Shown here: piece by piece, positions 8,700-58,816 of the stretch
Numbering within the stretch: the stretch's first letter is position 1
Layout of the letters: each line of letters begins with the position of its first letter
DNA from: a bacterium
Lineage (GTDB): Bacteria; Patescibacteriota; Minisyncoccia; Phycocordibacterales; UBA9973
Assembly (NCBI GenBank): GCA_021831595.1
Contig: JAKBMK010000020.1
Location: forward strand, 2,801 to 66,800
DNA length: 64,000 bases
Direction: 5' to 3'
The notes under the pieces: model-generated
What the model saw: the letters and a program-made list of their open reading frames with translations, nothing else
What the model was told of the DNA's origin: nothing
The model's database searches: none
Position numbers and translations under genes: made by a program

Positions 8700-8732
8700 A
8701 AAAGCTTTATTTTAAAGGATTTGTAGAAAAAT

Positions 8733-8761: not shown

Positions 8762-8803
8762 CAAAAAACAGAATAATAAATTATTAATTTAATTGAAAAG
8801 ACA

Positions 8804-9835
8804 ATGGCAAATACTATAACATTCAAACCTAAACAAGTTACCAAGAAAATACTTTCAAATTTACCCACACGCGCTTACGACGTAGTCGTGAATCGTTTTG
8901 GAATTACCACAGATGGAGAAAGAAAGACATTAGAAGCTATCGGTAAAAAGTATGGTATCACTCGTGAACGTGTACGTCAGATAGAAAATTCTGCCTTGTC
9001 TCTAATTCGCAAAAGTGACGCATTCAAAAGTGAAAAAGCTGTTTTCGAAGAGTTAAAGAGTCTCATGCATACTATGGGAGCTATTGTCTCAGAACATGAT
9101 TTCCTTAATCATCTCTCGAAAGATAAAATAACTCAGAACAATATTCATCTCTTCATGACTCTTAGTGATGAATTCACAAAACACAAAGAAGATGCACATT
9201 TCAAAACTCGTTGGAGTGTAGACGCAGAAGTTTCTGACAAGATTCACAAATCTCTTAAAAATCTATTTGAAAATCTCTCTGATAATGAATTAATCTCTGA
9301 AGGAGAATTAGTTGCAAAGTTCTTAGAAGAAGTCAAAGACTTGGCTGATAAATACAAGAATGAAGAGATAGCAAAGAGATGGCTCTCAATATCCAAGACC
9401 TTGAACAAGAATCCTCTTGGTGAATGGGGTAAATCTACTTCATCTTCTATTAAGGCTCGTGGAGTTAAAGATTATGCATTCCTAATGATGAGAAAGCATG
9501 GATCTCCTATGCACTTTAGAGAAGTTGCAAAGGCTGTCGCCAATACTTTTGATAAGAAGTGCCACACAGCAACTTGCCACAACGAACTTATAAAAGATCC
9601 TCGCTTTGTTTTGGTTGGACGCGGAATCTATGCTTTATCTGAATGGGGTTATAAGTCTGGAGTTGTACGTGATGTCATCAATGAACTTCTAAAGAAGAAT
9701 GGTCCAATGAGTAAAGATGATATTGTGGATCAAGTAATGAAGGAGAGATACTTGAAGAAGAATACAATCCTAGTCAATTTACAAAACGCAAAATATTTTA
9801 AGAAGAATAAATCAGGACTTTATACAGCAGTTTAA
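8804..9835 (+). CDS. DNA-binding protein with sigma-70 region-4-like HTH
   Basis: 343 aa; LEAIGKKYGITRERVRQIENSALSLIRK resembles sigma70 region 4.2; the rest is uncharacterised. Confidence 0.55.
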   Translation: MANTITFKPKQVTKKILSNLPTRAYDVVVNRFGITTDGERKTLEAIGKKYGITRERVRQIENSALSLIRKSDAFKSEKAVFEELKSLMHTMGAIVSEHDFLNHLSKDKITQNNIHLFMTLSDEFTKHKEDAHFKTRWSVDAEVSDKIHKSLKNLFENLSDNELISEGELVAKFLEEVKDLADKYKNEEIAKRWLSISKTLNKNPLGEWGKSTSSSIKARGVKDYAFLMMRKHGSPMHFREVAKAVANTFDKKCHTATCHNELIKDPRFVLVGRGIYALSEWGYKSGVVRDVINELLKKNGPMSKDDIVDQVMKERYLKKNTILVNLQNAKYFKKNKSGLYTAV

Positions 9836-9840
9836 AAAAA

Positions 9841-9873
9841 TCCCGCGAATCGCAAGATCCGCGGGATTTTTGT
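9841..9873 (+). terminator. rho-independent terminator
   Basis: tcccgcg-N12-cgcggga followed by ttttt. Confidence 0.8.
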
Positions 9874-9984
9874 TTGTAAAATTTCCTAAATTAACTTCGA
9901 GGTGTTATATGGAATACCATATAGCAACAGCATTCGGACATTACACAAATGAATAATCGTTCATTTGCGTATGTTCCTCATTTG

Positions 9985-9993
9985 TTGCTATAA
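9985..9993 (+). promoter_or_regulatory. extended -10 element TGCTATAAT
   Basis: TGnTATAAT lies 7 nt upstream of ATG 10001, which would give a leaderless transcript. Confidence 0.35.
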
Positions 9994-10000
9994 TAGAGGC

Positions 10001-10105
10001 ATGAACAATCGAGGTTTTGCAAATATTCTTTTAATTCTTTTAGGCATAATAATGATTGCGATAATTTTAGGATTTTTCACTTCATCTAATTTAAGAGTTT
10101 GGTAA
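10001..10105 (+). CDS. 34-aa hydrophobic small membrane peptide (candidate)
   Basis: MNNRGFANILLILLGIIMIAIILGFFTSSNLRVW; single TM; below the ORF-track size cutoff. Confidence 0.3.
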   Translation: MNNRGFANILLILLGIIMIAIILGFFTSSNLRVW

Positions 10106-39128: not shown

Positions 39129-39608
39129 ATGTCTATTGTAAGAGAAATATTAGATGAACTTTGGAATACAGAATACAATTACAAGGGAGTAAGGGTAAAT
39201 ATTTTTGGTATTCCGCGATTTAAAAAATATTCTGATAGTAGTTTACAACGAACGATAAATCGTTTAAAAGAGAAAGGAATAATAGAAAAAGAATTATCTG
39301 GAATTGTGCTTTCTAAATATGGTAAAAAATATTATCAGAAAAAGTTTGATTCTCTAAAACAATTTGAAAGACCCAAGAATCAACCCAAAGAGCGGAAACT
39401 CTTGGTAATGTTTGATGTTCCAACAGAAAAGAAGGGCGAGAGGGAATGGCTCCGCTGGCATTTAAAGAAATTCGATTATATTATGATTCAGCAAAGTGTC
39501 TGGGTTGGCCCATCACCACTACCTAAGGAATTTACTGAGTATTTAAAGAGTATAAAGCTGGATAGATGTATTAAGACTTTCAAACTAGAAAAACCATATT
39601 TTATTTAA
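39129..39608 (+). CDS. PaaX-like transcriptional regulator (wHTH plus PaaX_C-like domain)
   Basis: 159 aa; C-terminal KLLVMFDVPTEKKGEREWLRWHLKKFDYIMIQQSVWVGP matches the PaaX_C pattern (W..D.PE...R..LR..L...GF..L..SVW..P). Confidence 0.55.
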   Translation: MSIVREILDELWNTEYNYKGVRVNIFGIPRFKKYSDSSLQRTINRLKEKGIIEKELSGIVLSKYGKKYYQKKFDSLKQFERPKNQPKERKLLVMFDVPTEKKGEREWLRWHLKKFDYIMIQQSVWVGPSPLPKEFTEYLKSIKLDRCIKTFKLEKPYFI

Positions 39609-39685: not shown

Positions 39686-40207
39686 TTATTTGCACAGTTC
39701 GAAAAATTCTTTTTCGGTGGATTCGTCGATTTTATCAGTGACGATGATGATGAGTTCGGTAGAAAGATTTAAATCTTTTTTGATATTTGTAAAGAGATGC
39801 TCAAAAGGATATACAGATATCCAAACAGAATTTTTGAGGCAAGTGAATCCTGCTTTTTTGAGTAAGTAGCGAAGAGCTTCACGCTCACTCTTTCTTTCTT
39901 CTGGCATATCGAGAAGTATTATTCTCCAAAATCCATCCCAAGTATTACTTACTATGGCATTATCGCACTCAAGCTTGAGACTGTTGGCCTTCTTCTTGCC
40001 TTCTTTTGTAAGTTTGGCGTATTTATTCTGGCCAGAGTCCACACTTTCTATGAGTCCTGCGTCTTTTAGACCCTTTATAGAGCGATTTAGAGCATACTGG
40101 CTATCCTTATCTAGGGCAATCTTGTCTTCTAGTTCAGAGACGGAAACAGCCGGTCTTTCGGACAGGATTTTGATAATTTTCTTTGAAAAATCACGCTTTT
40201 TTAACAT
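39686..40207 (-). CDS. PaaX-like transcriptional regulator (paralog), divergent from dnaK
   Basis: 173 aa; N-terminal wHTH; C-terminal WDGFWRIILLDMPEERKSEREALRYLLKKAGFTCLKNSVWISVYP. Confidence 0.6.
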   Translation of the reverse strand: MLKKRDFSKKIIKILSERPAVSVSELEDKIALDKDSQYALNRSIKGLKDAGLIESVDSGQNKYAKLTKEGKKKANSLKLECDNAIVSNTWDGFWRIILLDMPEERKSEREALRYLLKKAGFTCLKNSVWISVYPFEHLFTNIKKDLNLSTELIIIVTDKIDESTEKEFFELCK

Positions 40208-42385: not shown

Positions 42386-43471
42386 ATGCCCAAAGATTAT
42401 TACAAAATATTAGGAGTAGACAAGAAAGCTTCAAAGGAAGAAATAAAAAAAGCTTTTCATAAACTAGCTCATGCTCATCATCCAGACAAGAATAATGGTG
42501 ATGACAAAAAGTTTAAAGAAGTGAATGAAGCTTATCAAGTTCTTTCTGATGACAAGAAGAGGGCTTCTTATGATCAATTCGGTAGTGCTGACGGGCCACA
42601 AGGCTTTGGTGGTGGAGGATTCGGAGGCCAGGGAGGATTTGGCGGATTTGATTTCAGAAATGGACAGGGAGGAATGGAATTCGATATGGGCGACCTAGGA
42701 GAAATCTTTGGTGACTTTTTTGGAGGTGGAAGAACTAAAAGTAAATCTAGAAAAGGTAGAGATGTACATACAGAAATTTATTTATCTTTTGAAGAAGCTG
42801 TTTTTGGAGTTGAGAAAAAGATAAATTTAAATAAACAATCTATTTGTAGTGTGTGTGGTGGAACAGGTGCCAAGGTTGGTACAAAAATGGATAATTGTAA
42901 GACTTGTAATGGCCAAGGTCAAATAAGAGAAATTCGTCGTTCAATACTAGGCAATTTTGAATCTGTAAAGACTTGTGAGACTTGTTTTGGAAGTGGTAAA
43001 GTTCCAACGCAGAAATGTAGTGAGTGTCGCGGCGCTGGGGTTGTAAAAAAGAATGAAGAAATAACCATAAAAATACCATCAGGTATAAATAATGGAGAAA
43101 CTTTACGTGTGCGTGACCAAGGAGAAGCTATTCAAGGAGCTTCTGCTGGGGATCTGTACATAAAGATGAATGTCAAAAACCATACGGTCTTTACTCGTGA
43201 AGATGCAAATTTATTGATGGATTTGAAGATAAAACTCACAGACTCACTCTTAGGGTTTAATTATAATTTGAAAACCTTGGATGGACATAACATAGAAGTG
43301 AAGATTCCAGAAGGAATAAATAACGGCGAAATGCTTCGTGTTCGAGGTAAAGGTGTGCCCGTCGGCGGAGGAAGAGGAGATATAATCATCAAGATTCATG
43401 TAGATATACCTAAGAAACTTTCTCGCAAAACAAAAGAAATAATAGAAGAGCTCAAGAAAGAAGGGTTGTAA
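42386..43471 (+). CDS. dnaJ: molecular chaperone DnaJ
   Basis: J-domain with HPD, G/F-rich region, four CxxCxGxG zinc-finger repeats. Confidence 0.95.
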
Positions 43472-43584
43472 AATCTTTACAAATCCCACAGATTTGCTAT
43501 TATTGTCAATATTATTATTTATTTATCAAGAGCCGAAGGTACTGAGAGATTTCTCGAAGTACAGATAATGCTTGATGTAAAGAA

Positions 43585-44961
43585 ATGACAAAACGTTCAA
43601 TCGCTTCTCGAAAACTTTGGAAGCTTGGTGTAAATGATTTTAATACTCAATATTTTGATTTCAACAAAGACGGTGATTTAATCGCCAAAGAAGGAAACAA
43701 TGTTTACAATATTCGCTATCTAGCTGAGAAGTTCGGAACTTCCCTTGAGATCCTTTTCCCATTCATTATCGAGGAACGAGTAGAAGACCTTCTTGACCTT
43801 TCGGCCTCTCTTATAAAAAAGCATAAATATCAGGGTAAATTCTATTATCACTATCCTATGAAGAGTAATCAGACCAAAGAGGTTGTTCAAGCTGTGGTAG
43901 GAGAAGGTGCAAATATTGAAACTGCTTCGTATAATGAATTGTACATAGTGAAGAAAATGCTCGAGCAAGAATCATTCAATGAGAAAATGAGAATTCTTTG
44001 TAATGGACCAAAGACGGATAAATATATAAATCTAATAGACGAACTTCAACATAGAGGTCTCAAAGTCATTCCTATCATAGAAGGACCTTCAGAACTTAGT
44101 ACATTCCAAAATTCCAAGTACGATGTTGGTATCAGACTCGATATCCCAGTAAAATCCAAAACTAATTGGAACAAGCAAATAGATAGATTTGGTTTCAGTA
44201 GAAATGAAATTTTGAAAATGTCATCATTTAAAAATTTGAAAGTTCTACATTACCGAATAGGTAAAATAGAAAAGCTCTCTGATTTGGTAGAAACTACAAA
44301 ATATGCTTTGAATGTTTATTTTAAATTAAAAGAGAAGAATCCATCTCTCGATACTCTCGATATTGGAGGAGGCATGCCTATTCCATTTGAAAGAAATAAA
44401 AAATATCCTGCTGATAAAATTCTCGAAAAGCTATTTGAATTATTGAAAAAGGAAGCTGAAAAGAGGGAAATGCCGCATCCAAATTTGATTTGTGAATGGG
44501 GAAGATACATGGTTGCCCCTGCGCAAATTACTATTTTTAAAGTTATAGATACCAAGAAAATATCTCACAAAGGAGTTGATGCAAAGAAATGGTATGTTAT
44601 TGATGGAAGTTTAATGAACGATCTCATTGATACTTGGGCTATAAATCAAAAATGGTTTGTTGCTCCTATAAACAATAAGTTAGACGGGGAATTGAATGAT
44701 GTTTGGATTTCTGGTTCTAGTTGTGATTCTGATGATATCTATACAGGTATAGGAGACTCTGTGACTCTACCAGACTATGATTATAGTCCAAATGAGCCTT
44801 TCTATGTAGTATTCTTTGATACTGGTGCATATCAAGACGCCTTGGCTTCACATCACTGCATGCTTTCTTCTCCTATTAAAATAATTGCAGAAAACGGACA
44901 TATAGTTGTTGCTAGAAAAAGAGAGACTCCAGAAGATGTTGGTAAAGAATTTGGTTGGTAA
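43585..44961 (+). CDS. PLP-dependent decarboxylase, biosynthetic arginine decarboxylase (SpeA)-like, compact
   Basis: YPMKSNQ PLP-lysine motif (compare SpeA FPIKVNQ), LDIGGG, CEWGR, GSSCDSDD (CDSxD). Confidence 0.55.
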   Translation: MTKRSIASRKLWKLGVNDFNTQYFDFNKDGDLIAKEGNNVYNIRYLAEKFGTSLEILFPFIIEERVEDLLDLSASLIKKHKYQGKFYYHYPMKSNQTKEVVQAVVGEGANIETASYNELYIVKKMLEQESFNEKMRILCNGPKTDKYINLIDELQHRGLKVIPIIEGPSELSTFQNSKYDVGIRLDIPVKSKTNWNKQIDRFGFSRNEILKMSSFKNLKVLHYRIGKIEKLSDLVETTKYALNVYFKLKEKNPSLDTLDIGGGMPIPFERNKKYPADKILEKLFELLKKEAEKREMPHPNLICEWGRYMVAPAQITIFKVIDTKKISHKGVDAKKWYVIDGSLMNDLIDTWAINQKWFVAPINNKLDGELNDVWISGSSCDSDDIYTGIGDSVTLPDYDYSPNEPFYVVFFDTGAYQDALASHHCMLSSPIKIIAENGHIVVARKRETPEDVGKEFGW

Positions 44962-45269
44962 ATATTATGATTTGGCTTTTATTGGGCGGATTTATATTAA
45001 CTATAGGAGATATTTTCTTTAAATTCTGGACTAAACACCCACATAATTGGATGTATCTTGTTGGTATCAGTATTTACATTATAGGATTAATGTTTTTAAT
45101 ACAGAGTTTTAAAAATACAAACATTGCGGTGGCTTCTGCTATCTTTGTGATTGCAAATATTGTTACTCTTGCTGTCGTTAGTTGGCTGTTTTTTCATGAA
45201 CCACTTTCATATCTGCAAATATTTGGAATCGTTTTGGCGATAATAGCTATCTTTATATTAGAAATATAA
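44955..45269 (+). CDS. small multidrug-resistance/EamA-like 4-TM transporter
   Basis: 104 aa, four TM helices, SMR-like size and topology. Confidence 0.5.
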   Translation: MVNIMIWLLLGGFILTIGDIFFKFWTKHPHNWMYLVGISIYIIGLMFLIQSFKNTNIAVASAIFVIANIVTLAVVSWLFFHEPLSYLQIFGIVLAIIAIFILEI

Positions 45270-45338
45270 TAAAAGGCTCGACTTGTTAATTTATATTATT
45301 TAAATTATAATACAAACATGTTAAAGAAGGGTAGTTAT

Positions 45339-45377
45339 ATGAATATAGCATGGTGGACAGCTCACATTTGTGGGTAG
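45339..45377 (+). CDS. candidate trp leader peptide MNIAWWTAHICG
   Basis: 12 codons with tandem TGG TGG at 45351-45356; 42 nt upstream of a terminator; precedes trpB. Confidence 0.45.
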   Translation: MNIAWWTAHICG

Positions 45378-45419
45378 TCTTCATTGTATTTATAATTATC
45401 TCTGAGTAATAAAAGACAA

Positions 45420-45440
45420 CCCACATTTGTGGGCTTTTTT
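45420..45440 (+). terminator. attenuator terminator hairpin upstream of trpB
   Basis: cccac-attt-gtggg followed by cttttttatt; the 12-mer cacatttgtggg also occurs at 45363-45374 inside the leader ORF. Confidence 0.5.
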
Positions 45441-45554
45441 ATTGTCAAATTTAAAATCATATGGATAAATTTATTTTTAAACAACATTGTACTGAGTTCT
45501 GGCGCTAGTAAAAACGCTTAGTTTTTACATTACTATTTTAAAAATAAAAATTAT

Positions 45555-46760
45555 ATGAAAACAAAAATTAAATCATTAAAAAATTTACCAGACAAAGATG
45601 GGTATTATGGAAAATTTGGAGGGAGTTTTGTCCCTGATCAACTAATAAAACCATTAAAAGAAATTGAACAAGAATATTTAAAAGCGAAAGATAATGTAGA
45701 ATTCCAGAAAGAATACTTAAATCTCTTGAAAGACTATGTCGGGCGTCCATCTCCACTTTATTTTGCTAAAAATTTAACAGAAAAATTAGGAGGAGCAAAG
45801 ATTTATCTTAAACGAGAAGACTTGAATCATACAGGGGCTCATAAGATAAATCATTGCATTGGTGAAGCTTTACTTGCAAAAAGAATGGGTAAGAAGAAAG
45901 TCTTAGCCGAGACTGGTGCAGGCCAGCATGGTGTTGCACTGGCTACAGCCGCTGCTCTCCTTGGTCTTGAGTGCGAAATACATATGGGTTCAATAGATAT
46001 TGAAAAAGAACGTCCAAATGTAATACGCATGAAATTATTAGGAGCCAAAGTGGTAGAAGTTAATACGGGAGGTAAATGTTTAAAAGACGCTGTTGATAGT
46101 GCCTTTGGAGTATTTATGAAAGAATACAAGACTACTTTCTTTGCAATAGGTTCTGTTGTAGGCCCTCATCCTTATCCAATGATAGTAAGAGATTTTCAAT
46201 CTATCGTTGGTCGAGAAGCAAAAGAACAGATATTAAAAAAAGAAAGAAAACTTCCTGATTATGTAATTGGCTGTGTTGGAGGAGGTTCAAATGCTATGGG
46301 ATTATTCCATGAATTTTTAGATGACAAAGTAAAACTCATTGGAGTTGAACCATCTGGTATAGGATCTAAGATTGGCGAACATGCTGCAACTATTAGTTAT
46401 GGAACAAATGGGGTGATACATGGGATGAAAACTCTAGTATTGCAGAACAATAAGGGCGAACCAAATAGTGTTCACTCTGTTGCCTCTGGGTTAGATTATC
46501 CTGGGGTTGGGCCTATCCATGCCTATGTGAAAGATATTGGCAGAGCAGAATACGTAACTGCTTCTGATGATGAAGCGATAAAAGCTTTCTTGGAATTATC
46601 TAGAGTTGAAGGTATAATTCCAGCACTTGAGAGTGCTCATGCTATGGCTTATGTCATGAAGCTAGCCACGACATTAGATAAAAATAAAATCATAATTGTG
46701 AATCTCTCAGGAAGAGGAGACAAAGATATAGAATATGTATCTAAATTATTAAAAATATAA
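45555..46760 (+). CDS. trpB: tryptophan synthase beta chain (stand-alone)
   Basis: [37 protein letters not shown] (PLP-lysine), [10 protein letters not shown]; no trpA or other trp genes nearby. Confidence 0.88.
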
Positions 46761-46765
46761 ATATA

Positions 46766-46796
46766 AAATGCACTAGGTAAGGCCTAGTGCATTTTA
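46766..46796. terminator. bidirectional terminator between convergent trpB and asd
   Basis: aaatgcactagg-taagg-cctagtgcattt followed by a T-run. Confidence 0.8.
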
Positions 46797-46808
46797 TATA
46801 GTGATTAT

Positions 46809-47897
46809 CTATTTAATGAACCCTTTTTTTACTAGAAGTTCAGCGTTGAGTATTCCTCCACCGGCTGCTCCACGAACTGTGTTATGTGAGAGAGCAACAA
46901 ATTTATAATCAAAAATCTTACAATCACGTAGGCGTCCGATAGTGACGGCCATACCTTTGTCGTTATCACGATCTTTTCTTGGCTGAGGACGATTTTCTTC
47001 TTCTTTGTAGATTATTGGATTAATGGGTGCAAAAGGAAGCTTCAAATCTTGAGGAATAGATTTGAATTCATTCCAAATTTTAATTATTTGTTCTTTAGTA
47101 GGCTTTTTATCTTTGAACAAAATATTTACAGTTGCAAGATGTCCATCGATGACTGGTACTCTAGTACAAGTAGCAGATATACTTATATCTTTACTCTTTA
47201 CAAATTTACCATTCTTTATTTCCCCAAGAATTTTGAGTGGTTCTTCTTCTGTTTTCTCTTCTTCACCACCGATAAATGGTACGACATTGTCTATCATGTC
47301 GAGACTTGGTACTCCTGGATATCCAGCACCTGAAACAGCCTGTAGGGTAGTAATCATTACCTTTTTTACAGGAAAACCCGCCTTATTTAGGGCATATATA
47401 GGGGTTAGATAGCTCTGTAGAGAGCAGTTTGGCTTCACAGCGATAAATCCTTTATTCCATCCATGATTTTTCTTTTGAGAAGCAATAATATCTAAATGGT
47501 TAGCATTTATTTCAGGTATAAGCATTGGAACGTCTTCACTCCATCTATTAGCAGAAGCGTTTGAAACTACAGGAATTCCCATTGCCGCATATTTTTCCTC
47601 AATTTCTCTTACAAGATTTTTATCACCTATTTCGAATGCAGAAAAAACAAAGTCACATTTTTTTGATGCTTTTTCTATATCATCAACATTTTCTACTTTT
47701 ATATTACTTACCTTAGCTGGTATTGGAGTAGGCATCTGCCATCTTCCTTTTACAGCTTCTCCATAAGACACTCCTGCTGAGTTAGCTGAGGCTGCTAAGT
47801 AAACAACATCAAACCAAGGATGCTTTTCAAGAAGTTTTATATAATTTTGACCTACCATACCTGTCGCTCCCAATATTCCTACTTTTAGTTTTTTCAT
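46809..47897 (-). CDS. asd: aspartate-semialdehyde dehydrogenase
   Basis: GILGATGMVGQ Rossmann fold; catalytic Cys in NCSLQ context; archaeal-type Asd length. Confidence 0.85.
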   Translation of the reverse strand: MKKLKVGILGATGMVGQNYIKLLEKHPWFDVVYLAASANSAGVSYGEAVKGRWQMPTPIPAKVSNIKVENVDDIEKASKKCDFVFSAFEIGDKNLVREIEEKYAAMGIPVVSNASANRWSEDVPMLIPEINANHLDIIASQKKNHGWNKGFIAVKPNCSLQSYLTPIYALNKAGFPVKKVMITTLQAVSGAGYPGVPSLDMIDNVVPFIGGEEEKTEEEPLKILGEIKNGKFVKSKDISISATCTRVPVIDGHLATVNILFKDKKPTKEQIIKIWNEFKSIPQDLKLPFAPINPIIYKEEENRPQPRKDRDNDKGMAVTIGRLRDCKIFDYKFVALSHNTVRGAAGGGILNAELLVKKGFIK

Positions 47898-47898
47898 A

Positions 47899-49293
47899 TT
47901 ATTTTTTAATAAATTTTTTATATAAATTGTTTACGACTTTTTCAATATTATCTGTTCTTATGACCGCCTCTATTCTTTTACAGTTTTCAAAATAGAAAGC
48001 ACTTATTTGTAAATCTGTACCAAGTTTTACAAGCAAGCTGTTGAAATCATTTACATCCTTGGCCTCAAAGTTTCCGACAAGGAAAACCATACTAGCTTTT
48101 ATTAATTCAATTTTTTCTACTTTACTTTTTATCTCGTTATAGACTTTTTCTATTTCATCATTTTTTTCTGCAACTATTTGCAGACTGTATCTTGTATTGC
48201 TTACAAGAATCATTTCCACTTTATGTTTTTTGAATATATCGCAAACCAAGAGTAGTAAGTCATTAACTTTTATAACCTCATCTGTGATTAATAATAAGTT
48301 CAAATCTTTCTTTATGCTAACTATTTTTGCACCCTTCTCTTTCTTTTTAATTTCTCCGATTTTTGTAGTGAGCTTAGGATTAGCGATGGAAGCAATCTCT
48401 ATTTCTGTTTTGTGCATTTTCACATACTGTATTGCCTTGTCATGGATAATTTTTCCTGCTTCTTCAGCTTCCAAATATGAGATGAAGGGGATAGTCTTGG
48501 CTGTTTTTACTATCTTAGGATCAGCAGAGAGAACCCCTCCGACATCTTTCCATAAAATAACTCTTTTAGCTTCTAGCGCTGCTCCTACAAAGCAGGCTGT
48601 TGTATCAGTTCCTCCTCGTCCGAGAGTTGTTACTTCACCATCGTTAGTTATTCCTGTGAATCCAGGGATAACAACAACTTCTTCTTTTTCTTTTATTTTG
48701 TTTTTTACATTTCTTGAAGAAACCAAGTAATCGATATTTGCATTTTTGAAATGATCATCGGTTATTATTGGTATTTCTTCGGCAATAAACTCTTTAGCGT
48801 TAAGGTTGTTGGATTTAAAATAATAGGTCATTATTATGGCTGAAAGTTTTTCTCCACAAGAAACAACCTTATCTTCTAGGGCGTTAGTTACAGCACCAAC
48901 CTTTCCTTCTGTCTTTTTATGGTCTATTTTGAGATCATCCTCTAGTTTAGTCATGACATTCTCTAATTGTGTAAAGACTTCATCTTCATACTCTTTAGAA
49001 ATTTGTATATCTTTCACTATTTGTTTGTGTCGATTGAGTAAATTTTGAGCAAATGACTCAATTAATTTTCTATCATAATTCTCCTTAAGACTACTTAAGA
49101 AATTAAGTATCTCATCTGTGACCTTTGGCATAGCAGAAACGACAGCAATACTTTGATTGCCTTTTTTTACCTGTTCCTCGATTCTTTTCTTCATCAATGG
49201 GATAAATTCCTTTGTCAGAATTCCGCCCCCAAACTTGTTCACAATGATTGGTTTAGACATTTCTTTTGGTAAATATAATTTATTAATAAACAA
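47899..49293 (-). CDS. aspartate kinase
   Basis: IVNKFGGGIL amino-acid-kinase N-terminus, GRGGTDTTA, C-terminal ACT-like region. Confidence 0.8.
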   Translation of the reverse strand: MFINKLYLPKEMSKPIIVNKFGGGILTKEFIPLMKKRIEEQVKKGNQSIAVVSAMPKVTDEILNFLSSLKENYDRKLIESFAQNLLNRHKQIVKDIQISKEYEDEVFTQLENVMTKLEDDLKIDHKKTEGKVGAVTNALEDKVVSCGEKLSAIIMTYYFKSNNLNAKEFIAEEIPIITDDHFKNANIDYLVSSRNVKNKIKEKEEVVVIPGFTGITNDGEVTTLGRGGTDTTACFVGAALEAKRVILWKDVGGVLSADPKIVKTAKTIPFISYLEAEEAGKIIHDKAIQYVKMHKTEIEIASIANPKLTTKIGEIKKKEKGAKIVSIKKDLNLLLITDEVIKVNDLLLLVCDIFKKHKVEMILVSNTRYSLQIVAEKNDEIEKVYNEIKSKVEKIELIKASMVFLVGNFEAKDVNDFNSLLVKLGTDLQISAFYFENCKRIEAVIRTDNIEKVVNNLYKKFIKK

Positions 49294-49520
49294 GTTGATT
49301 ATAGTATATATAGTAGATAAATCAAGGACATTTTCATTGACTTATGGGGGTAGCAATAGTAAACTAATATTGTTATTAAAATTGTAATTGCGCTTCGTCA
49401 AAATAGCTTTCTTCAAAATGCACACAATAATTTTCTGCTGAAAATTTTGCTCGTACTCGGGCCGTCGCCCTCCGTAAGTCATTTTTCAGAAACTATTTTA
49501 ACTACGCTATAAATCATATT

Positions 49521-50771
49521 ATGAACAAAATTTTAGTTATTGGTTGCGGAAATGTAGGAAGTGTCGGTTTGCATAAAATGGCACAATTTAAAGATACTTT
49601 TTCAGAGATACACGTAGTAGGTAGAACTCTTTCTAAGTGCGAAGCTGTCCGTCAGTCTGTTTTAAAAAAGACGAAAGGGAAAGTTGATTTAAATATTCAC
49701 ATAGCTGACGTTGGTAATGGAGATACATTCTTAAGACTCCTCAAAGAAATTAAACCTACTTTAGTTGTAAACTGGGGAAGTCCTTACGATAATTTGGTTG
49801 TAATGGATGCATGTCTCGAATATGGAGTCAACTACATTGATACTGCTTGTTATGAGAATCCAGAGAAGTATGGCTTCTCTTATAAACTTCAGCTTGCTAA
49901 AAATGAAGCTTTCAAGAAGAAAGGGTTACTTGCTATTCTTGGTTCAGGCTTTGATCCAGGAGTTTCAAACATTTATTCAGCTTACGCTCGCGATTATATG
50001 TTCGACAAGATAGATACTATCGATATCTTGGATTGTAATGGAGGTTCAAAAGATGCCAAGATTAAATTTGCCCCAAACTTTGACCCAGAGATAAATCTCC
50101 GTGAACTTATACTTCCTATTAAATTCTGGGAGAAGGGTAAATGGCAAGAGAGAATGAAACTCATCGATGAAGATGCACCATTCTTTGAATTTAATTTCCC
50201 TGAGGCTGGTAAATTCACTCCTTATCTTATGTACCACGAAGAACTAGAAACTATCCCTACACACATACCAGGACTCAAGCGTATTCGTTTCTGGATGACA
50301 TTCTCAACTACATACCTCACATACCTCCGCGTACTTTACAATGTCGGACTTACACGTATCGATACGGTGGATTATGATGGCAAGAAGGTTGTACCAGTCA
50401 AATTCTTGAAGGCAATTCTTCCTAAGGGTGAGGACTTCAATAGTGGATACGTTGGCAAGACGAATATTGGAAACATTATCACAGGAACAAAGAGTGGTAA
50501 GAAGAAAGCTGTATATATCTACAACGTTTGCGACCATAAGGCTGCCTTTAAAGAGACAGGAGGCAATGCTATAGGCTACACGACAGCTATTCCAACCGTT
50601 ACTTGTGCCAAACTCGTCCTAGAGGGCAAATGGGGAGGAGTAGGAACGAAAAATACCGAAGACAAGAGTCTTGATTCAAAGATCTTTATCGACGAAATGG
50701 CAAAAGTAGGTCTTACAACAAACATAAAAACTCTCAAAGACATACCTGCTGCACTTAAAAAAAGCTATTAA
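49521..50771 (+). CDS. carboxynorspermidine/carboxyspermidine dehydrogenase (saccharopine dehydrogenase family)
   Basis: ILVIGCGNVG Rossmann fold; CASDH-like length; followed by the CANSDC gene. Confidence 0.7.
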   Translation: MNKILVIGCGNVGSVGLHKMAQFKDTFSEIHVVGRTLSKCEAVRQSVLKKTKGKVDLNIHIADVGNGDTFLRLLKEIKPTLVVNWGSPYDNLVVMDACLEYGVNYIDTACYENPEKYGFSYKLQLAKNEAFKKKGLLAILGSGFDPGVSNIYSAYARDYMFDKIDTIDILDCNGGSKDAKIKFAPNFDPEINLRELILPIKFWEKGKWQERMKLIDEDAPFFEFNFPEAGKFTPYLMYHEELETIPTHIPGLKRIRFWMTFSTTYLTYLRVLYNVGLTRIDTVDYDGKKVVPVKFLKAILPKGEDFNSGYVGKTNIGNIITGTKSGKKKAVYIYNVCDHKAAFKETGGNAIGYTTAIPTVTCAKLVLEGKWGGVGTKNTEDKSLDSKIFIDEMAKVGLTTNIKTLKDIPAALKKSY

Positions 50772-50784
50772 TTAAACATTTCCA

Positions 50785-50808
50785 AACAGTGGCAAAACCA
50801 CTGTTTGG
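50785..50808 (+). promoter_or_regulatory. strong hairpin immediately upstream of the CANSDC ribosome-binding site
   Basis: ccaaacagtgg-caaaa-ccactgtttgg, then GGAGGA and ATG 50817; no T-tract. Confidence 0.4.
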
Positions 50809-50816
50809 AGGATTAT

Positions 50817-52034
50817 ATGTCAAAAAATAATGAAAACATTTTTATAGAACCTTGGATTGATACGGAAGGATGGGATAAACTGGACTTTTCGAAAGTAGAG
50901 ACTCCATCGTATGTAGTCTCCTTAGAGAAGCTCGAGAATAATCTAAAAATTTTGAAAGAGGTAGAAGACAAGACTGGCGCTCATATACTTATGGCTCTCA
51001 AAGGATTTTCGATGTTTTCGACGTTTTCTTTAATCAAAAAATATCTTTCAGGATCTGAAGCAAGCTCTGTAAATGAAGCTCGTCTTGGATATAAAGAATT
51101 CGGAAAAGAAACTCATGTCTTCTCGCCATCATATACAGAAGAAAATCTTAGGGAATATATAAAGTATGCTGATCATTTAGTTTTTAACTCTTTCTCTCAA
51201 TGGAATAAATTTGCCGCCTTCGTTAAAACTACGGCAGGCCGAAGAAAAATATCGTGTGGAATTAGAGTTAACTTAGAACATAGCGAAGTAGAAACTTCTA
51301 TGTACGATCCCAGTAGTGAGAATTCTCACTTTGGGGTGACAATAAAAAACTTTGAAAGAGAAAATATAAAAGGGTTAGAAGGTTTACATTTTCATAATCT
51401 TTGTGAACTTGATGCTGATGCACTAGAAAGAAGTCTCAAAGTTTTTGAAGAGAAATTTGGTGAATTTTTAGGGGGGATGAAATGGGTAAATTTTGGCGGA
51501 GGACATCATATAACCAGGAAAGATTACAATGTGTCTTTGCTTTGCAAAATATTAAATGATTTTAAATCACGATATCCTCATCTCGAAATTTATTTAGAGC
51601 CAGGAGAAGCGATAGCTCTCAATGCTGGTGTTTTAGTTGCAAGCGTAATAGATATATTCAAGAATAATAAAAATATTGCTGTGCTTGATGTGTCTGCCAC
51701 CACTCACATGCCAGATGTTCTAGAAATGCCTTATTTACCAACGATTTTAGGTGCAGAGCCTTCGCACAAAGCTACAGTCGGCGAAGAAAGCCATATATAT
51801 AGATTAGTGGGGCCAAGTTGTCTTACAGGAGATGTGATAGGAGAGTATTCATTCACCAAACCGCTTGAAATAGATCAAAAACTTGTATTTATGAATATGG
51901 CTATATATACGATGGTGAAGAACAATACTTTCAATGGAGTAAATTTGCCAAATATCACAACAGTAGATAAAACTGGGAAAATAAAAATTATTAAAAAGTT
52001 TGGATATAAAGATTTTAAAAATCGATTATCATAA
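50817..52034 (+). CDS. nspC: carboxynorspermidine/carboxyspermidine decarboxylase
   Basis: alanine-racemase-fold decarboxylase; VNFGGGHH, EPGEAIA, GPSCLTGD; one of the few clear GGAGGA Shine-Dalgarno sites in the window. Confidence 0.7.
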   Translation: MSKNNENIFIEPWIDTEGWDKLDFSKVETPSYVVSLEKLENNLKILKEVEDKTGAHILMALKGFSMFSTFSLIKKYLSGSEASSVNEARLGYKEFGKETHVFSPSYTEENLREYIKYADHLVFNSFSQWNKFAAFVKTTAGRRKISCGIRVNLEHSEVETSMYDPSSENSHFGVTIKNFERENIKGLEGLHFHNLCELDADALERSLKVFEEKFGEFLGGMKWVNFGGGHHITRKDYNVSLLCKILNDFKSRYPHLEIYLEPGEAIALNAGVLVASVIDIFKNNKNIAVLDVSATTHMPDVLEMPYLPTILGAEPSHKATVGEESHIYRLVGPSCLTGDVIGEYSFTKPLEIDQKLVFMNMAIYTMVKNNTFNGVNLPNITTVDKTGKIKIIKKFGYKDFKNRLS

Positions 52035-52038
52035 TATT

Positions 52039-53097
52039 ATGAGTAAAGAAGAAAATTTAAAAAAGAGGGAGGAAGTACTAAAAGATTTTGATTCTAATGA
52101 AAATGGATTAACACACCATGGAATATTTGGTTTGCCGTTCAGCACAGAGGAATCGAGTCTTGTTCTTGTCCCTGTACCATGGGAAGCAACTGTAAGCTAT
52201 AAAGGAGGAACAGCGGAAGGCCCAAAGTCTATACTGGATGCATCACAGCAAATTGATCTCTATAATTTTCTATATCCAAACGGATGGAAAGAGGGTATAG
52301 CTATGCAAGATATACCAACGAGTATTTTGTATAACAATAAATACACTAAAGAGAAAGTCTCAAAATATTTAGATAAATATGTAGAAGGAGAAATTGATAA
52401 AAATTTACAAAACGAAATTAATAATGATTGTTTAGAATTAAATAAATATGTAAGAGAAACAACCAGTGAATTTTTGAAAGAAGGTAAAATTGTTGGTATT
52501 GTAGGGGGTGACCATAGTACACCTCTTGGTTATCTGGAAGCTTTAGCTGAAAAATACGACGATTTTGGGGTTCTACATATAGATGCTCATGCTGACTTGA
52601 GGAATGCATATGAAGGAATGACTTACTCTCATGCTTCTATATTTTATAATGCATTAGGAATAAAAAATATTTCAAAACTTGTCCAAGTTGGTATTAGAGA
52701 TTTCTGCGAGCAGGAATATGAATTAGTAAAAAAGGAGAAAAAGAGAATTTCTTTCTTTACAGACTACGAAATAAAAAAATTTATTTTTGAAGGAGGAACA
52801 TTAAAAAAGAAATTTCATGAGATTATAAAATGCTTGCCTAAGAATGTATATATTTCATTTGATATAGACGGCCTGACGCCATCCCTAAGTCCTAACACAG
52901 GTACACCCGTAGCTGGAGGATTTTCTATGGAAGAAATGGTTTTTCTTTTTGAAGAATTATTAGACTCTGGTAAAAAAATTATAGGATTTGATTTGTGTGA
53001 AGTAGCTCCTGGAAAAGAAGAAGAATGGGATGGGAATGTTGGTTCTCGTATGCTCTATAACCTCTCTCTAACTGCTCTAAAAAGTCAAAAAGAGTAA
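52039..53097 (+). CDS. speB: agmatinase (ureohydrolase family)
   Basis: GGDHS, LHIDAHADL, SFDIDGL manganese-binding motifs. Confidence 0.8.
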   Translation: MSKEENLKKREEVLKDFDSNENGLTHHGIFGLPFSTEESSLVLVPVPWEATVSYKGGTAEGPKSILDASQQIDLYNFLYPNGWKEGIAMQDIPTSILYNNKYTKEKVSKYLDKYVEGEIDKNLQNEINNDCLELNKYVRETTSEFLKEGKIVGIVGGDHSTPLGYLEALAEKYDDFGVLHIDAHADLRNAYEGMTYSHASIFYNALGIKNISKLVQVGIRDFCEQEYELVKKEKKRISFFTDYEIKKFIFEGGTLKKKFHEIIKCLPKNVYISFDIDGLTPSLSPNTGTPVAGGFSMEEMVFLFEELLDSGKKIIGFDLCEVAPGKEEEWDGNVGSRMLYNLSLTALKSQKE

Positions 53098-53150
53098 ATT
53101 GCAATTTATTTATAGTAGGTTGGTAGCATATGGCTTGGATATGAAAATAT

Positions 53151-53678
53151 TCAAGCCTTTTTTGTTTTATAATATTTATATCCTTCTAGAATAATATCTT
53201 TAACTTTTGATTCTAGTACTTCACTATCAGAAGAACCAAAGAATCCTATTTGTGAACAAGACCCGTCTTGACATCCAGTAGGTTTACTTTTTGCAATTAC
53301 AATATAGTGCGGGTTATAAGCATATTTAGGGTATGGTTTTCCGTTTACTTTATTTATCTTTTCTGTATCAGGATTGATAATTTCATTGTAACCGAACATC
53401 TCTAAAGAGATTATATCTTCCAGACCAGCTTCTTCTTGGAGCTCTCTCATCAAAGCTTCTTCGATTGATTCACCTTCTTCAATATGACCTCCTGGTAATT
53501 CCCATCCTCTTTTAATGTTTTCCACCAGAACAATTTTACCATCCCAGATAATTAAACCAGTAGCTGTTGTGGCAATAGCTTGTTCAGGTAAATTCGGCGA
53601 TATGTAAAAATTCCAAAAAGTAGTGTTTTTCCAATTTCCAGATAATACCAGATTTCCTTTTTTGTTATCATTACTCAT
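53151..53678 (-). CDS. NUDIX hydrolase
   Basis: Nudix box GGHIEEGESIEEALMRELQEEAGL. Confidence 0.85.
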   Translation of the reverse strand: MSNDNKKGNLVLSGNWKNTTFWNFYISPNLPEQAIATTATGLIIWDGKIVLVENIKRGWELPGGHIEEGESIEEALMRELQEEAGLEDIISLEMFGYNEIINPDTEKINKVNGKPYPKYAYNPHYIVIAKSKPTGCQDGSCSQIGFFGSSDSEVLESKVKDIILEGYKYYKTKKA

Positions 53679-53720
53679 ATTTATATTATATAAGTTTCCT
53701 TAAAAATAACAAATTGTGGT

Positions 53721-54653
53721 ATGATAAGCAGTATGAATTGGTTTTTAATTGCACTTGGAGCCCCGTTCTTGTGGGCGATAGTAAATATTGCAGACGATTA
53801 TCTTGTCACAAAATTTTCCAATAAAGAAACAGAGAGAGGATCGGGAGGACTTGTATTGTTCTCTAGTCTTATTGGTCTTTTTATTGCCTTTTTTATTTGG
53901 TTTTTTGTCGGAGGAGTTTTAGATGTCTCATCGATGGATAAAATTCTCCTTCTGGTAACTGGCGGTTTAACAATTGTTTGGATTATTTTTTATCTATATG
54001 CTCTTGAAATAGAAGAGATTTCTTCTGTTGTTCCATGGTTCCTTGTTTCTCCAATCTTTGGATATTTTTTTGGCTATATATTTTTAGGAGAAACTCTTAC
54101 AAAATTCCAAATCATAGGCACCCTTATAATATTATTTGGTGCATTTTTGATATCAATAGATTTCAATGAAAAAGTAAAGAAGATAAAGAGAAAGCCTGCC
54201 TTCTATATGATATGTGCTTGTGTCGCTATTGCCATATCTGGTGTAATTTTCAAATCGGTGACAATAGAAGGGAACTTTTGGATTTCATCATTCTGGGAAT
54301 ATTTAGGACTAGGTATGTTTGGAATAATAATTTATATATTTATACCTAAATATCGTCGGGAGTTTCATTTTATGAATAAAACTGGTGGAAGAAAGATATT
54401 TTTGATAAATACAGTTAGTGAACTTATGAGCGTGGCAGGGAACCTACTAACCAACTTTGCCTTATTGTTAGCTCCAGTCACAATGGTCTATCTAGTTAGT
54501 ACATTTCAACCAGCTATAGTTTTAGTTCTCACAATACTAGGAACAAAGTTTATGCCTCATATTATTAAAGAAAATATTTCAAGAAAAGCACTAATTCCAA
54601 AAATGATAGCAATTATAATTATGATTTTAGGCAGTGTATTTCTATTCGTTTAA
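53721..54653 (+). CDS. EamA/DMT family transporter
   Basis: 310 aa, 10 TM helices, duplicated EamA-like halves. Confidence 0.7.
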   Translation: MISSMNWFLIALGAPFLWAIVNIADDYLVTKFSNKETERGSGGLVLFSSLIGLFIAFFIWFFVGGVLDVSSMDKILLLVTGGLTIVWIIFYLYALEIEEISSVVPWFLVSPIFGYFFGYIFLGETLTKFQIIGTLIILFGAFLISIDFNEKVKKIKRKPAFYMICACVAIAISGVIFKSVTIEGNFWISSFWEYLGLGMFGIIIYIFIPKYRREFHFMNKTGGRKIFLINTVSELMSVAGNLLTNFALLLAPVTMVYLVSTFQPAIVLVLTILGTKFMPHIIKENISRKALIPKMIAIIIMILGSVFLFV

Positions 54654-57622: not shown

Positions 57623-58816
57623 TTAAATTTTATCTAATCCAAAACCAAAAACTTTATCAAAATCAAGTAATGTAGCTTTCTTATCGGTAGGAGAGAGTTC
57701 TTTATTTTTTAGAATCTCCCAAACCAGAGATAAAGCTCGAGCTGTATTTAAATTGTCATCCATATATTCGACAAAACGAGTCTTATAGTTCACATCAACA
57801 ATTCCGATACCATCTCCGAGGGCTATATAGCCTTTTTTAAGACGCTCCAAAGCTACTTGTGCGCCTTTTATGGTCTCAAGTGTAAAGTTTACTTTGGTTG
57901 AGTAGTTGGAAGTATATAGCCAAAGTCTGAACGCAAGAGGATCAATTCCTTTTTCTATCAAATCTTTCAGTGTATAAAAGTTGCCAAGAGACTTAGACAT
58001 CTTTTTACCGTCTACCAAGAGATGCTCATTGTGCATCCAATATTTTACAAATTCTTTACCTGTTACGCATTCTGATTGCGCTATTTCATTTTCATGGTGG
58101 GGGAATATATTGTCTACACCACCAGTATGGATATCAAAACTCTCGCCGAGTTCTTTCATACTCATAGCAGAACATTCTATGTGCCACCCAGGGCGTCCTT
58201 TACCTAAGCTTGTCTCCCAAAAAACATCTCCATCTTTCTCATCCCAAGCTTTCCACAAGGCAAAATCTTGAGCGTTTTCCTTATCATATTCATCATTTTT
58301 TAATCGTCCCAAAGCATTTTCTTTCAAATCTTTTAAATCAAAACCGGACAATTTGCCATATTCTTTGTCTTTATGAATATCAAAATAGACAGACCCGTCA
58401 GTAGTTTTGTAAGCAAAACCTTTCTCTATTAAAATCTCTATTAGCTTTACCATTTCATTTATGAACGAAGTTGCCTTAGTGTAAATATCAGCCTTCACTA
58501 TGTTAAGTAAATCAAGATCTTTAAAGAAAGCTTCTATATAAAACGAAGTGAAATCAACCAAACTCTTATTTTCATTCTGTGATTCACGGATAGTTTTATC
58601 ATCCACATCTGTAATATTCATGACATGCTTCACGTTATATCCACTATATTTAAGATAACGTTTTAGCATATCGCCAAATATATAAGCTCTAAGGTTTCCA
58701 ATATGAGCATATGAATAAACTGTTGGCCCACATGTATACAGACCAACTTCTCTATCTTTAATTGATTTGAATTCTTCTTTTTCTCTTGATAATGTATTAA
58801 ATAATTTTAAAGCCAT
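57623..58816 (-). CDS. cysS: cysteine--tRNA ligase (compact)
   Basis: HIGN (HIGH) motif, KMSKS, zinc-binding Cys residues; 397 aa. Confidence 0.9.
   Translation of the reverse strand: MALKLFNTLSREKEEFKSIKDREVGLYTCGPTVYSYAHIGNLRAYIFGDMLKRYLKYSGYNVKHVMNITDVDDKTIRESQNENKSLVDFTSFYIEAFFKDLDLLNIVKADIYTKATSFINEMVKLIEILIEKGFAYKTTDGSVYFDIHKDKEYGKLSGFDLKDLKENALGRLKNDEYDKENAQDFALWKAWDEKDGDVFWETSLGKGRPGWHIECSAMSMKELGESFDIHTGGVDNIFPHHENEIAQSECVTGKEFVKYWMHNEHLLVDGKKMSKSLGNFYTLKDLIEKGIDPLAFRLWLYTSNYSTKVNFTLETIKGAQVALERLKKGYIALGDGIGIVDVNYKTRFVEYMDDNLNTARALSLVWEILKNKELSPTDKKATLLDFDKVFGFGLDKI

Follow-up and report, generated by a model that had tools for sequence, protein, structure and literature searches.

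The stretch analysed here, a window of 64,000 nucleotides from contig JAKBMK010000020.1, carries at positions 43585-53097 a polyamine gene cluster that we read, with moderate confidence and from its sequence, as a self-contained module for the synthesis of spermidine from arginine and aspartate by way of carboxyaminopropylagmatine (CAPA). The block comprises nine open reading frames (ORFs), whose families were assigned by Pfam and NCBIfam profile scans; homologous loci retrieved in collection scans are denoted by L-numbers. The host is a Paceibacteria-like bacterium of the Candidate Phyla Radiation (CPR, Patescibacteria). In this CPR clade the cluster is conserved, the families of its enzymes are clear, and the genes for aspartate-semialdehyde dehydrogenase (Asd) and aspartate kinase (AK) are tightly linked to those for a dehydrogenase (DH) and a decarboxylase (DC). 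A preliminary description of the stretch had named six ORFs of an aspartate-semialdehyde-dependent polyamine cluster; all six were recovered where it had placed them or within a few codons, with the expected family matches, and the family assignments bear out the overall character of the cluster.

The substrate of each enzyme and the order of the steps we infer as follows. AK and Asd, encoded by translationally abutting genes that diverge from the remaining operon, would convert aspartate into L-aspartate-β-semialdehyde (ASA), and a short SpeA-like enzyme would decarboxylate arginine to agmatine. The DH would join ASA and agmatine by reductive condensation to CAPA, the DC would convert CAPA to N1-aminopropylagmatine, and an arginase-fold ureohydrolase (UH) would release urea from the latter to yield spermidine. 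Putrescine would be bypassed, and the enzyme first described as an agmatinase would act last and not second. Such an order has precedent, as many gene sets annotated for carboxyspermidine dehydrogenase (CASDH), carboxyspermidine decarboxylase (CASDC) and agmatinase run from agmatine and ASA via CAPA and N1-aminopropylagmatine to spermidine, and CAPA clusters carry either a ureohydrolase or AguA/AguB (PMC10599626). Genomes that encode arginine decarboxylase (ADC) go with the aminopropylagmatine route according to the Michael laboratory (PMC11999265). In the collection, two loci of Streptococcus, for which a CAPA dehydrogenase (CAPADH) has been verified, show the order DH>DC>AguA>AguB (L073, L076).

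The DH (49521-50771, plus strand, 416 aa; Pfam Sacchrp_dh_NADP and Sacchrp_dh_C) is central to the assignment, since it is the dehydrogenase rather than the decarboxylase that sets specificity (Michael laboratory, PMC11999265). Three positions distinguish the known enzymes: N104/F113/E228 in CAPADH, I113/W126/D241 in the CASDH of A. tumefaciens and V112/E125/D240 in the carboxynorspermidine dehydrogenase (CANSDH) of V. cholerae (Xi et al. 2023, PMC10599626). The guanidinium group is hydrogen-bonded by N104, and in the N104A and N104Q variants the Km for agmatine is 7- to 150-fold higher (PMC10599626). The window DH, a member of a CPR subclade, reads TACYENPEKYGF…YHEELE at these sites, i.e. Cys110/Phe119/Glu240, with Phe119 at +9, the spacing and loop length of CAPADH. 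Two of the three CAPADH residues are thereby kept (the equivalents of F113 and E228), and the N104 position is occupied by Cys110. Equivalents of E106, D139, D165, H227 and T342/T343 are likewise present, as are both candidate positions for E187. The alignment columns show neither W126 nor D241 nor the 4-residue insertion of CASDH in the window DH. The CASDH references were taken from plasmid records, among which the CASDH-type enzyme of S. meliloti pSymB (L084) displays I113/W126/D241 at exactly the published positions. Of the 68 relatives on the CAPADH side that come from outside the CPR, 67 read N/F/E, including those of Micrarchaeota, Peribacteria, Streptococcus and Campylobacter, and the remaining one reads SYE.

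A neighbour-joining (NJ) tree of the DH with 200 bootstraps gave CPR monophyly in 100% of replicates and separated CPR plus N/F/E enzymes from CASDH in 100%, while a grouping of CPR with CASDH was obtained in 0%. The DH thereby falls with lineages whose CAPADH is biochemically verified (Streptococcus, Helicobacter/Campylobacter, Desulfovibrio and Bacteroides). The window enzyme is 48% identical to the N/F/E group (at most 52%) and 38-40% identical to CASDH; N/F/E enzymes are 64% identical among themselves and 42% to CASDH. All four PDB matches are of CASDH/CAPADH type (4INA, 403 bits; 4RL6, 367; 8DEB, 363; 8H4Z, 353), and 4RL6 and the H. pylori enzyme are verified CAPADHs (PMC10599626). The CANSDH equivalog NF043000 was matched at 329.8 bits, far from its cut-off of 800. 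Judged by these comparisons, the DH lies on the CAPADH side, yet in a divergent clade that is without the guanidinium-contacting Asn. As a consequence, the order first proposed, agmatine to putrescine followed by putrescine plus ASA, appears less likely. Two other identities were rejected. The lysine-pathway saccharopine dehydrogenase is set aside by the PDB matches, and a saccharopine-dehydrogenase-like protein of Streptomyces is only 27% identical to the window DH; homospermidine synthase (HSS) is set aside since BLASTP at E < 1e-3 detects no similarity between the DH and the HSS-like protein of L100. The PDB matches and the NJ tree agree in this respect with the preliminary description, which had named the DH a carboxyspermidine dehydrogenase.

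The UH (52039-53097, plus strand, 352 aa, its ORF open from a TTG at 52000; Pfam Arginase, 186 bits) retains the conserved motifs GGDHS, DAHAD and SFDIDGL for binding of the binuclear Mn centre. Aminopropylagmatine ureohydrolase (APAUH) is marked by two signature residues, E60, which contacts the diaminopropane moiety from the adjoining subunit, and R151 (PMC10599626); the latter follows the final Asp of DAHxD by two residues. In the motif DAHADLR of the window UH, Arg188 stands at the R151 position, and Arg is found there in 121 of 121 family members; SpeB of E. coli has Tyr instead (DAHTDTY). Against the agmatinase models the UH scored 163.5 bits on TIGR01230, a narrow miss of the 174.3 cut-off to which a CPR-specific insertion may contribute, and 122.7 bits on NF002564 (cut-off 302). 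The name agmatinase used at first is hence right as to the arginase fold and ureohydrolase family, and goes too far in that the protein stays below both agmatinase cut-offs and bears an APAUH Arg absent from the E. coli enzyme; it is predicted to be an aminopropylagmatine ureohydrolase or an agmatinase. An N-terminal motif, P-x-E-x-[ST]-V-S-Y, is common to the UH and the ureohydrolases of Desulfobulbales and Planctomycetes clusters, and the SpeA-x-DH-DC-UH clusters in the same two groups have DH, DC and UH in the same order. The DC (50817-52034, plus strand, 405 aa, its ORF open from a TTG at 50805) lies between DH and UH in a compact operon, 45 nt from the former and 4 nt from the latter. It passes the nspC equivalog TIGR01047 with 478 bits (cut-off 409) against 68 bits on the lysA model, and its best PDB matches are carboxynorspermidine decarboxylases (CANSDC; 9EAF, 437 bits; 3N29, 357 bits), diaminopimelate (DAP) decarboxylases reaching at most 39 bits. 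On these profile and PDB scores a DAP decarboxylase was rejected, and the earlier naming of the DC as a CANSDC/CASDC-type enzyme holds. Taken together, the position of the DH on the CAPADH side and the Arg signature of the UH favour the CAPA order over one that starts from putrescine.

Agmatine would be provided by the product of the first gene, a pyridoxal phosphate (PLP)-dependent decarboxylase of 458 aa with an alanine-racemase fold (43585-44961, plus strand; Pfam Orn_Arg_deC_N and Orn_DAP_Arg_deC). Its best NCBIfam matches are SpeA models, partial and below cut-off (NF003763, 176.2 bits against 369; TIGR01273, 150.6 against 624), next to a weak full-length match to LysA TIGR01048 (129.8 bits, cut-off 298). 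BLAST aligned the enzyme with E. coli SpeA in two collinear segments, residues 7-325 with 32-381 and 333-424 with 482-576, so that residues 382-481 of SpeA, the inserted helical domain, and its C-terminal ~80 aa are skipped; E. coli LysA matched at the C-terminus only. The motifs YPMKSNQ, DIGGG, EWGR, SCDSDD and GAYQD are of SpeA type, and neither CESGD of LysA nor CDxxD of ornithine decarboxylase (ODC) is present. Among 121 close homologues, 90 keep the sequence HYHIGSQ, and the 31 of the window subclade read HYR[IM]G[-SA]K, with Arg in 31 of 31 and the Ser mostly lost. As this Arg is fixed and the other catalytic motifs are intact, the change points to selection rather than decay. An exhaustive search at E ≤ 1e-3 yielded 1460 cluster representatives; those closest to the clade from outside it are 440-500 aa long and 30-52% identical, and in 30 of 30 tested members of this wider short family the SpeA models scored best, again below cut-off. 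The enzyme thus belongs to a broader, uncharacterised family of short SpeA-like proteins, named "hypothetical protein" by NCBI and "arginine decarboxylase" by JGI. The initial label "SpeA-like arginine decarboxylase" is sound as regards kinship, given the motifs and the collinearity, and overstated for a short protein without a family name that fails both SpeA equivalog cut-offs; homology and context suggest arginine decarboxylase activity.

The two genes on the minus strand encode the candidate suppliers of ASA. Asd (46809-47897) is of the archaeal/eukaryal type (TIGR00978, 397 bits, cut-off 301; NF006416, 479 bits, cut-off 232), has the ASA dehydrogenase of M. jannaschii as its best PDB match (1YS4, 296 bits) and conserves the catalytic Cys (KPNCS) and His (VIDGH). 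AK (47899-49293) matches TIGR00657 over its full length (238.7 bits, cut-off 209); its best PDB match is the M. jannaschii enzyme 3C1M, and it has the amino-acid-kinase fold and a KFGGG motif. The two genes are 1 nt apart, and gene callers place the AK start 33 nt downstream of the TTG, which gives 453 aa. The window AK retains its C-terminal region, in which Pfam detected no ACT domains even at E ≤ 10. Shorter forms occur among CPR relatives: AK is without the C-terminal regulatory region in L015, L099 and L100 (295-373 aa), and it has an internal deletion of ~60-70 residues in L011 and L012 (386 aa). These shortened kinases hint at a loss of amino-acid feedback control.

The association of AK and Asd with the polyamine genes was followed from both ends. 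A DH-centred scan of 80 genome loci, mapped by tblastn, showed Asd<AK< divergent beside >DH>DC in six CPR loci (L004, L006, L010, L011, L012, L015), and linkage of AK/Asd to DH-DC in 0 of ~65 loci from free-living bacteria. In an Asd-centred scan of 33 metagenome loci, 11 of the 12 with an Asd at least 74% identical and with sequence beyond AK carry the DH, and the DC too where the sequence allows, L101 (74%) being the exception. Asd copies at least 78% identical adjoin AK, DH and DC, many of these loci also having the ADC-like gene and the UH. Conversely, copies of 48-65% identity were never seen with DH or DC, and several stand beside homologues of DapA, DapB, LysA, Hom or ThrC (L108, L111, L112, L114-L119). 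This clean split by neighbourhood supports the view that AK and Asd constitute a dedicated supply of ASA to the polyamine pathway, as had been proposed at the outset; the DH- and Asd-centred synteny lends it comparative support, together with the arrangements in Peribacteria and Micrarchaeota described below. With E. coli queries, tblastn found no homologue of Hom, ThrB, ThrC, DapA or DapB in the window, and the same five are absent from every DH-DC-bearing CPR locus. Some 10 kb on each side could be read on the 152-kb contig DAHWPP010000001.1 (GCA_027351505.1), which is identical to the window where compared; the genes called in these flanks, which were not searched by tblastn, belong to housekeeping Pfam families only (among them FtsZ/FtsA, DnaB, aminoacyl-tRNA synthetases, MraY, FtsW and MurG). 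In the reading preferred here, ASA would have no other sink in the organism, though further ASA users may be encoded elsewhere in the genome.

Close homologues of the enzymes are annotated as Candidatus Paceibacterota, Patescibacteria or Parcubacteria, and ENA assemblies as well as the metagenome-assembled genomes GCA_027428335.1 and GCA_021786835.1 contain the same locus. The layout ADC-like | Asd<AK< | >DH>DC>UH recurs on more than 20 independent CPR contigs and is therefore no chance juxtaposition; at least 12 CPR loci have the ADC-like gene next to the cluster, and it is missing from the corresponding position in L011 and L012. The slot after DH-DC is filled in CPR relatives by this UH or by AguB/AguA-like genes (L005, L097; upstream of the DH in L014), the two alternatives known from CAPA clusters (PMC10599626). 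Outside the CPR, a contig of Micrarchaeota, a DPANN archaeon, has the same divergent arrangement Asd<AK<|>DH>DC (L017, 7455-12405), and a Peribacteria locus combines Asd>DH>DC>AguB-like in one co-directional operon (L047, 6-4378). The module appears to have been shared or exchanged between reduced-genome lineages.

Several observations weigh against the pathway as drawn. In the DH, 132 of 133 sequences of the CPR clade (the window, 12 loci and 119 of 120 close homologues) have at the N104 position a Cys, a residue closer in character to the Ile/Val of CASDH and CANSDH, and in the NJ tree the CPR enzymes branch as sister group of the CAPADH clade without being clearly nested within it, monophyly of the N/F/E enzymes without CPR reaching 63%. 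In the UH, Asp73 instead of Glu occupies the probable E60 position, with Asp in 121 of 121 members; the correspondence to E60 of Synechocystis Sll0228 is indirect, by way of the aligned E69 in T. volcanium 3PZL and Glu in cluster-linked ureohydrolases. An insertion of ~26 aa lies beside this position in all 121. The SpeA-like enzyme, besides missing both equivalog cut-offs, reads HYRIG-K in place of HxHxGSQ (residues 222-228, 44248-44268), its PLP-stacking His being replaced by Arg. At L100, which has a C/F/E-type DH, ODC-like and HSS-like genes accompany asd and there is no ureohydrolase, i.e. a putrescine context. Lastly, the AK-Asd pair of L101 (2629-9131) adjoins genes for a DeoC/LacD-family aldolase, dehydroquinate (DHQ) synthase II, prephenate dehydratase and prephenate dehydrogenase/chorismate mutase, a set which we take to be an ASA-dependent, archaeal-type entry into the aromatic amino acids. 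It suggests that ASA feeds aromatic amino-acid synthesis at L101 and calls for caution in ascribing a role in polyamine synthesis alone. These CPR-wide changes, from N104 to Cys and from E60 to Asp, temper the preference for the CAPA order.

An order that begins with putrescine accordingly retains an appreciable, if lesser, probability. Here the UH would be a true agmatinase, the DH a CASDH acting on putrescine and ASA, and the DC the enzyme that gives spermidine, a CPR clade of CAPA-type ancestry having switched substrate. The replacement of the guanidinium-binding N104 by a residue resembling the Ile/Val of CASDH/CANSDH would fit such a switch, as would Asp in all 121 CPR ureohydrolases in place of E60, the binder of the aminopropyl moiety. 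The same hypothesis accounts for three CPR contexts at once, since UH, AguA/AguB and an ODC-like enzyme are three routes to putrescine, and it draws on L100, where a C/F/E DH is paired with ODC-like and HSS-like genes. Moreover, even an N/F/E-type enzyme, 8DEB of B. fragilis, turns over putrescine in vitro (PMC10413350). Against a switch speak the retention of F113, E228 and the CAPADH loop length, with no W126, D241 or 4-residue insertion gained, and the bootstraps, in which the CPR DH never joined CASDH. The UH, for its part, combines the APAUH Arg missing from E. coli agmatinase with scores below the TIGR01230 and NF002564 cut-offs, and CAPA clusters likewise have the genes in the order DH-DC-UH. 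More speculative, and in our view rather doubtful, is a combined reading in which the CPR enzymes form a third specificity class, marked by N104 to Cys in the DH, by E60 to Asp plus the insertion in the UH and by a minimal SpeA-like decarboxylase, all three fixed across the clade, and in which the pathway reverted from agmatine to putrescine or accepts both substrates, with AK and Asd surviving solely for polyamine synthesis and the module shared with DPANN archaea; if true, this would be the first case of a whole aspartate branch-point kept for polyamine and not for amino acids.

The genes of L100 are of interest on their own account. Directly after asd (7245-10061), this locus encodes a 488-aa HSS-like protein with both Sacchrp_dh domains and a 432-aa decarboxylase resembling eukaryote-type ODC, the latter with the motifs FAVKAN, FHVGSQ, GPTCDAFD and GAYT. 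Together these genes constitute another polyamine module, one based on putrescine.

That AK and Asd are housekeeping enzymes is unlikely. They would then serve the aspartate family (lysine/DAP, threonine, methionine) or another ASA pathway, and their adjacency to the polyamine genes would be incidental or reflect one use of ASA. L101 would provide another ASA sink in a close relative, with an Asd 74% identical to that of the window; its aldolase and DHQ synthase II homologues are, however, found neither in the window nor in any DH-DC-bearing CPR locus, and the same is true of DapA, DapB, Hom, ThrB and ThrC. The trpB gene adjoining asd in the window could also be taken to link the pair to amino-acid synthesis, but it is a recent insertion not seen in relatives. 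The window AK keeps its C-terminal region, whereas this regulatory region has been lost in L015, L099 and L100. Two DH-DC loci with 10-kb flanks, L013 and L014, have no AK or Asd nearby, which would be in line with a separate role; on the other hand, none of the 12 informative loci of the Asd-centred scan shows dap, hom or thr genes, which do accompany the distant Asd copies, and the independent arrangements in Peribacteria, with Asd inside the operon, and Micrarchaeota agree with a polyamine link. PMC11809585 also describes CPR bacteria as limited in their metabolic capabilities. It is likewise unlikely that the 458-aa enzyme decarboxylates ornithine, lysine or DAP in place of arginine, or that it is an inactive paralogue, so that agmatine or putrescine would come from another source: the missed SpeA cut-offs, the weak full-length LysA match of 130 bits, the NCBI family name, the HYRIG-K of the window subclade and the gaps at L011 and L012 have to be set against collinearity of both halves with E. 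coli SpeA where LysA matches at the C-terminus only, the presence of the SpeA-specific motifs YP.K.NQ, CDSD and GAYQ[DE] and not those of LysA or ODC, the 30 of 30 wider-family members that fit SpeA models best, an Arg-for-His exchange fixed in 31 of 31 with the other catalytic motifs intact, the recurrence of the gene beside the cluster, and the need for an arginine-derived substrate that follows from a guanidino-hydrolysing enzyme, UH or AguA/B, in the cluster.

In the CAPA reading preferred here, the closest known system is the CAPA pathway of Synechocystis sp. PCC 6803 (Slr0049, Sll0873, Sll0228; PMC10599626), which uses the same three enzyme families, with ADC giving agmatine and ASA donating the aminopropyl group. 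Many CAPA clusters have the gene order DH-DC-(UH or AguA/B) found here. In comparison with Synechocystis, the window DH has F113, E228 and those catalytic residues that could be mapped, and the window UH has R151; the differences are the CPR-fixed Cys at N104 and Asp at the E60 equivalent, the ~26-aa insertion in the UH and the short ADC. AK and Asd inside the cluster are not described for the known pathway. The carboxyspermidine route of Agrobacterium, Paracoccus and Brucella, and the CANSDH/CANSDC pair of Vibrio, likewise rely on ASA-dependent aminopropylation by a saccharopine-dehydrogenase-family enzyme and an alanine-racemase-fold decarboxylase. The window DC passes the nspC equivalog, while the window DH is without the I/W/D signature and the 4-residue loop insertion; ODC and diaminobutyrate aminotransferase/decarboxylase are absent from the window. 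Relative to the SpeA enzymes of E. coli, V. vulnificus (3N2O) and C. jejuni (3NZP), the 458-aa protein has the same fold and motifs and is collinear over the barrel and β-sandwich domains, but it is ~200 aa shorter than the ~630 aa of SpeA, the inserted helical domain and C-terminal extension being absent, and has Arg for His.

A pathway-dedicated aspartokinase is found in ectoine clusters, where an additional or specialised AK, Ask_Ect (Pseudomonas stutzeri), secures the ASA precursor. The present case differs in that both AK and Asd are linked and the product is a polyamine. Amino-acid biosynthesis is mostly missing from CPR genomes; the host is probably without a competing aspartate-family pathway, and the AK and Asd of the cluster may be its only ones. 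Enzymes and chemistry alike fall within the ASA-dependent polyamine family already known. What is new is that CPR and DPANN lineages have AK and Asd as part of the cluster, that two enzymes carry CPR-fixed substitutions at published specificity residues, and that a minimal SpeA-like protein is the ADC candidate; in addition, AK and Asd may serve polyamine synthesis alone where aspartate-family amino-acid synthesis is expected to be absent. The literature yielded nothing specific on AK/Asd linked to CASDH clusters or on polyamine synthesis in CPR bacteria. As the CPR has lost most biosynthesis, what remains shows needs that a host does not meet. Spermidine would be among these needs, given a conserved and self-sufficient module that unites a decarboxylase with two enzymes for the precursor and three for the pathway. 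AK and Asd would gain a role outside amino-acid synthesis, which bears on metabolic reconstructions that score a "partial lysine/threonine pathway" from the two genes. The clade-wide changes at specificity residues also make good test cases for how DH and UH discriminate between agmatine- and putrescine-derived substrates.

Two further genes separate the SpeA-like gene from asd. The first (44955-45269, plus strand) encodes, in keeping with the preliminary description, an SMR/EamA-like transporter (Pfam Multi_Drug_Res, 39 bits; EamA, 34 bits), which has 104 aa and four transmembrane segments. It overlaps the ADC-like gene by 7 nt, and a 66%-identical copy adjoins asd in L091; the ADC-like enzyme and the transporter may be co-translated. 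The second, a full-length trpB at 45555-46760 (plus strand; TIGR00263, 573 bits, cut-off 392), had been overlooked, so that an amino-acid biosynthesis gene is present in the block after all, though one without a link to ASA. Situated between the ADC-like/SMR pair and asd, it is a solo trpB whose product is of the TrpB1 type (beta subunit of tryptophan synthase), and the window contains no further trp gene. No trpB occupies the corresponding position in CPR relatives that have sequence from the ADC-like gene to asd (e.g. L004, L006, L010, L088-L090, L092, L094-L098), and identical TrpB sequences were found only in contigs of the same species. From this comparison trpB is considered a lineage-specific insertion outside the polyamine pathway, suggestive of an indole salvage function acquired by horizontal transfer.

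Upstream of trpB, positions 45339-45433 (plus strand) hold a putative Trp attenuator. A leader ORF of 12 codons, MNIAWWTAHICG plus stop, contains two tandem Trp codons and is preceded by a Shine-Dalgarno-like AAGAAGGG. It is followed by hairpins with the arms GCUCAC/GUGGGU and CCCAC/GUGGG and a U-tract, and the arms can re-pair as an antiterminator: the four leader segments pair either as 1:2 and 3:4, with the U-tract after 3:4, or as 2:3. The fold energy is -37 kcal/mol (z = -4.95), and Rfam gave a weak match to Trp_leader (22 bits, E = 0.85). The element has the layout of a classical ribosome-mediated Trp attenuator, here in a CPR genome, and would be part of the trpB insertion. At gathering threshold, Rfam reported no element over the window. 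When 43400-53800 was scanned at E ≤ 1, neither AK nor the operon was matched by a T-box or a riboswitch, the lysine riboswitch included, and the Trp_leader match was the sole notable one.

Between the convergent trpB and asd genes, a 17-bp palindromic hairpin (46761-46799) is likely to act as a bidirectional terminator, and a terminator-like hairpin with a T-run lies 3' of the UH gene (53132-53157, plus strand). The divergent AK/DH intergenic region (49294-49520, 227 bp) presumably holds promoters for both directions; a promoter scan of it gave consensus-like matches only, in numbers not above those in shuffled sequence. A 14-bp hairpin between DH and DC (50779-50811, plus strand) covers the GGAGG of the DC. 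Its role as a conserved translational switch sequestering this site was rejected because the spacers of relatives are only a few nt long or hold unrelated palindromes, GC-rich in character, as seen in L004, L007, L012, L013, L095, L097 and L099. The spacers of L007 and L099 have a similar element of ~60 nt in common (…TTTTTGAAGCTTAAAAA…GCCGTCGC…). Such spacer palindromes are possibly small mobile elements.

The rest of the window is typical of the CPR, with genes for ribosomal proteins, RpoA, DnaK/DnaJ/GrpE and short aminoacyl-tRNA synthetases and many orphan ORFs; outside the block, no other amino-acid biosynthesis gene was seen among the annotated genes. Two ORFs are very large, one of 2541 aa at 31424-39049 and one of 960 aa at 28419-31301, the latter without a Pfam match. 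Two small divergent proteins (39129-39608 and 39686-40207) carry a PaaX central/Cas2-like domain, and one of them weakly matches Cas2 TIGR01573. Among the synthetases, the AlaRS is shortened to 581 aa (15510-17255, plus strand) and the CysRS to 397 aa, against ~466 expected from the model (57623-58816, minus strand).

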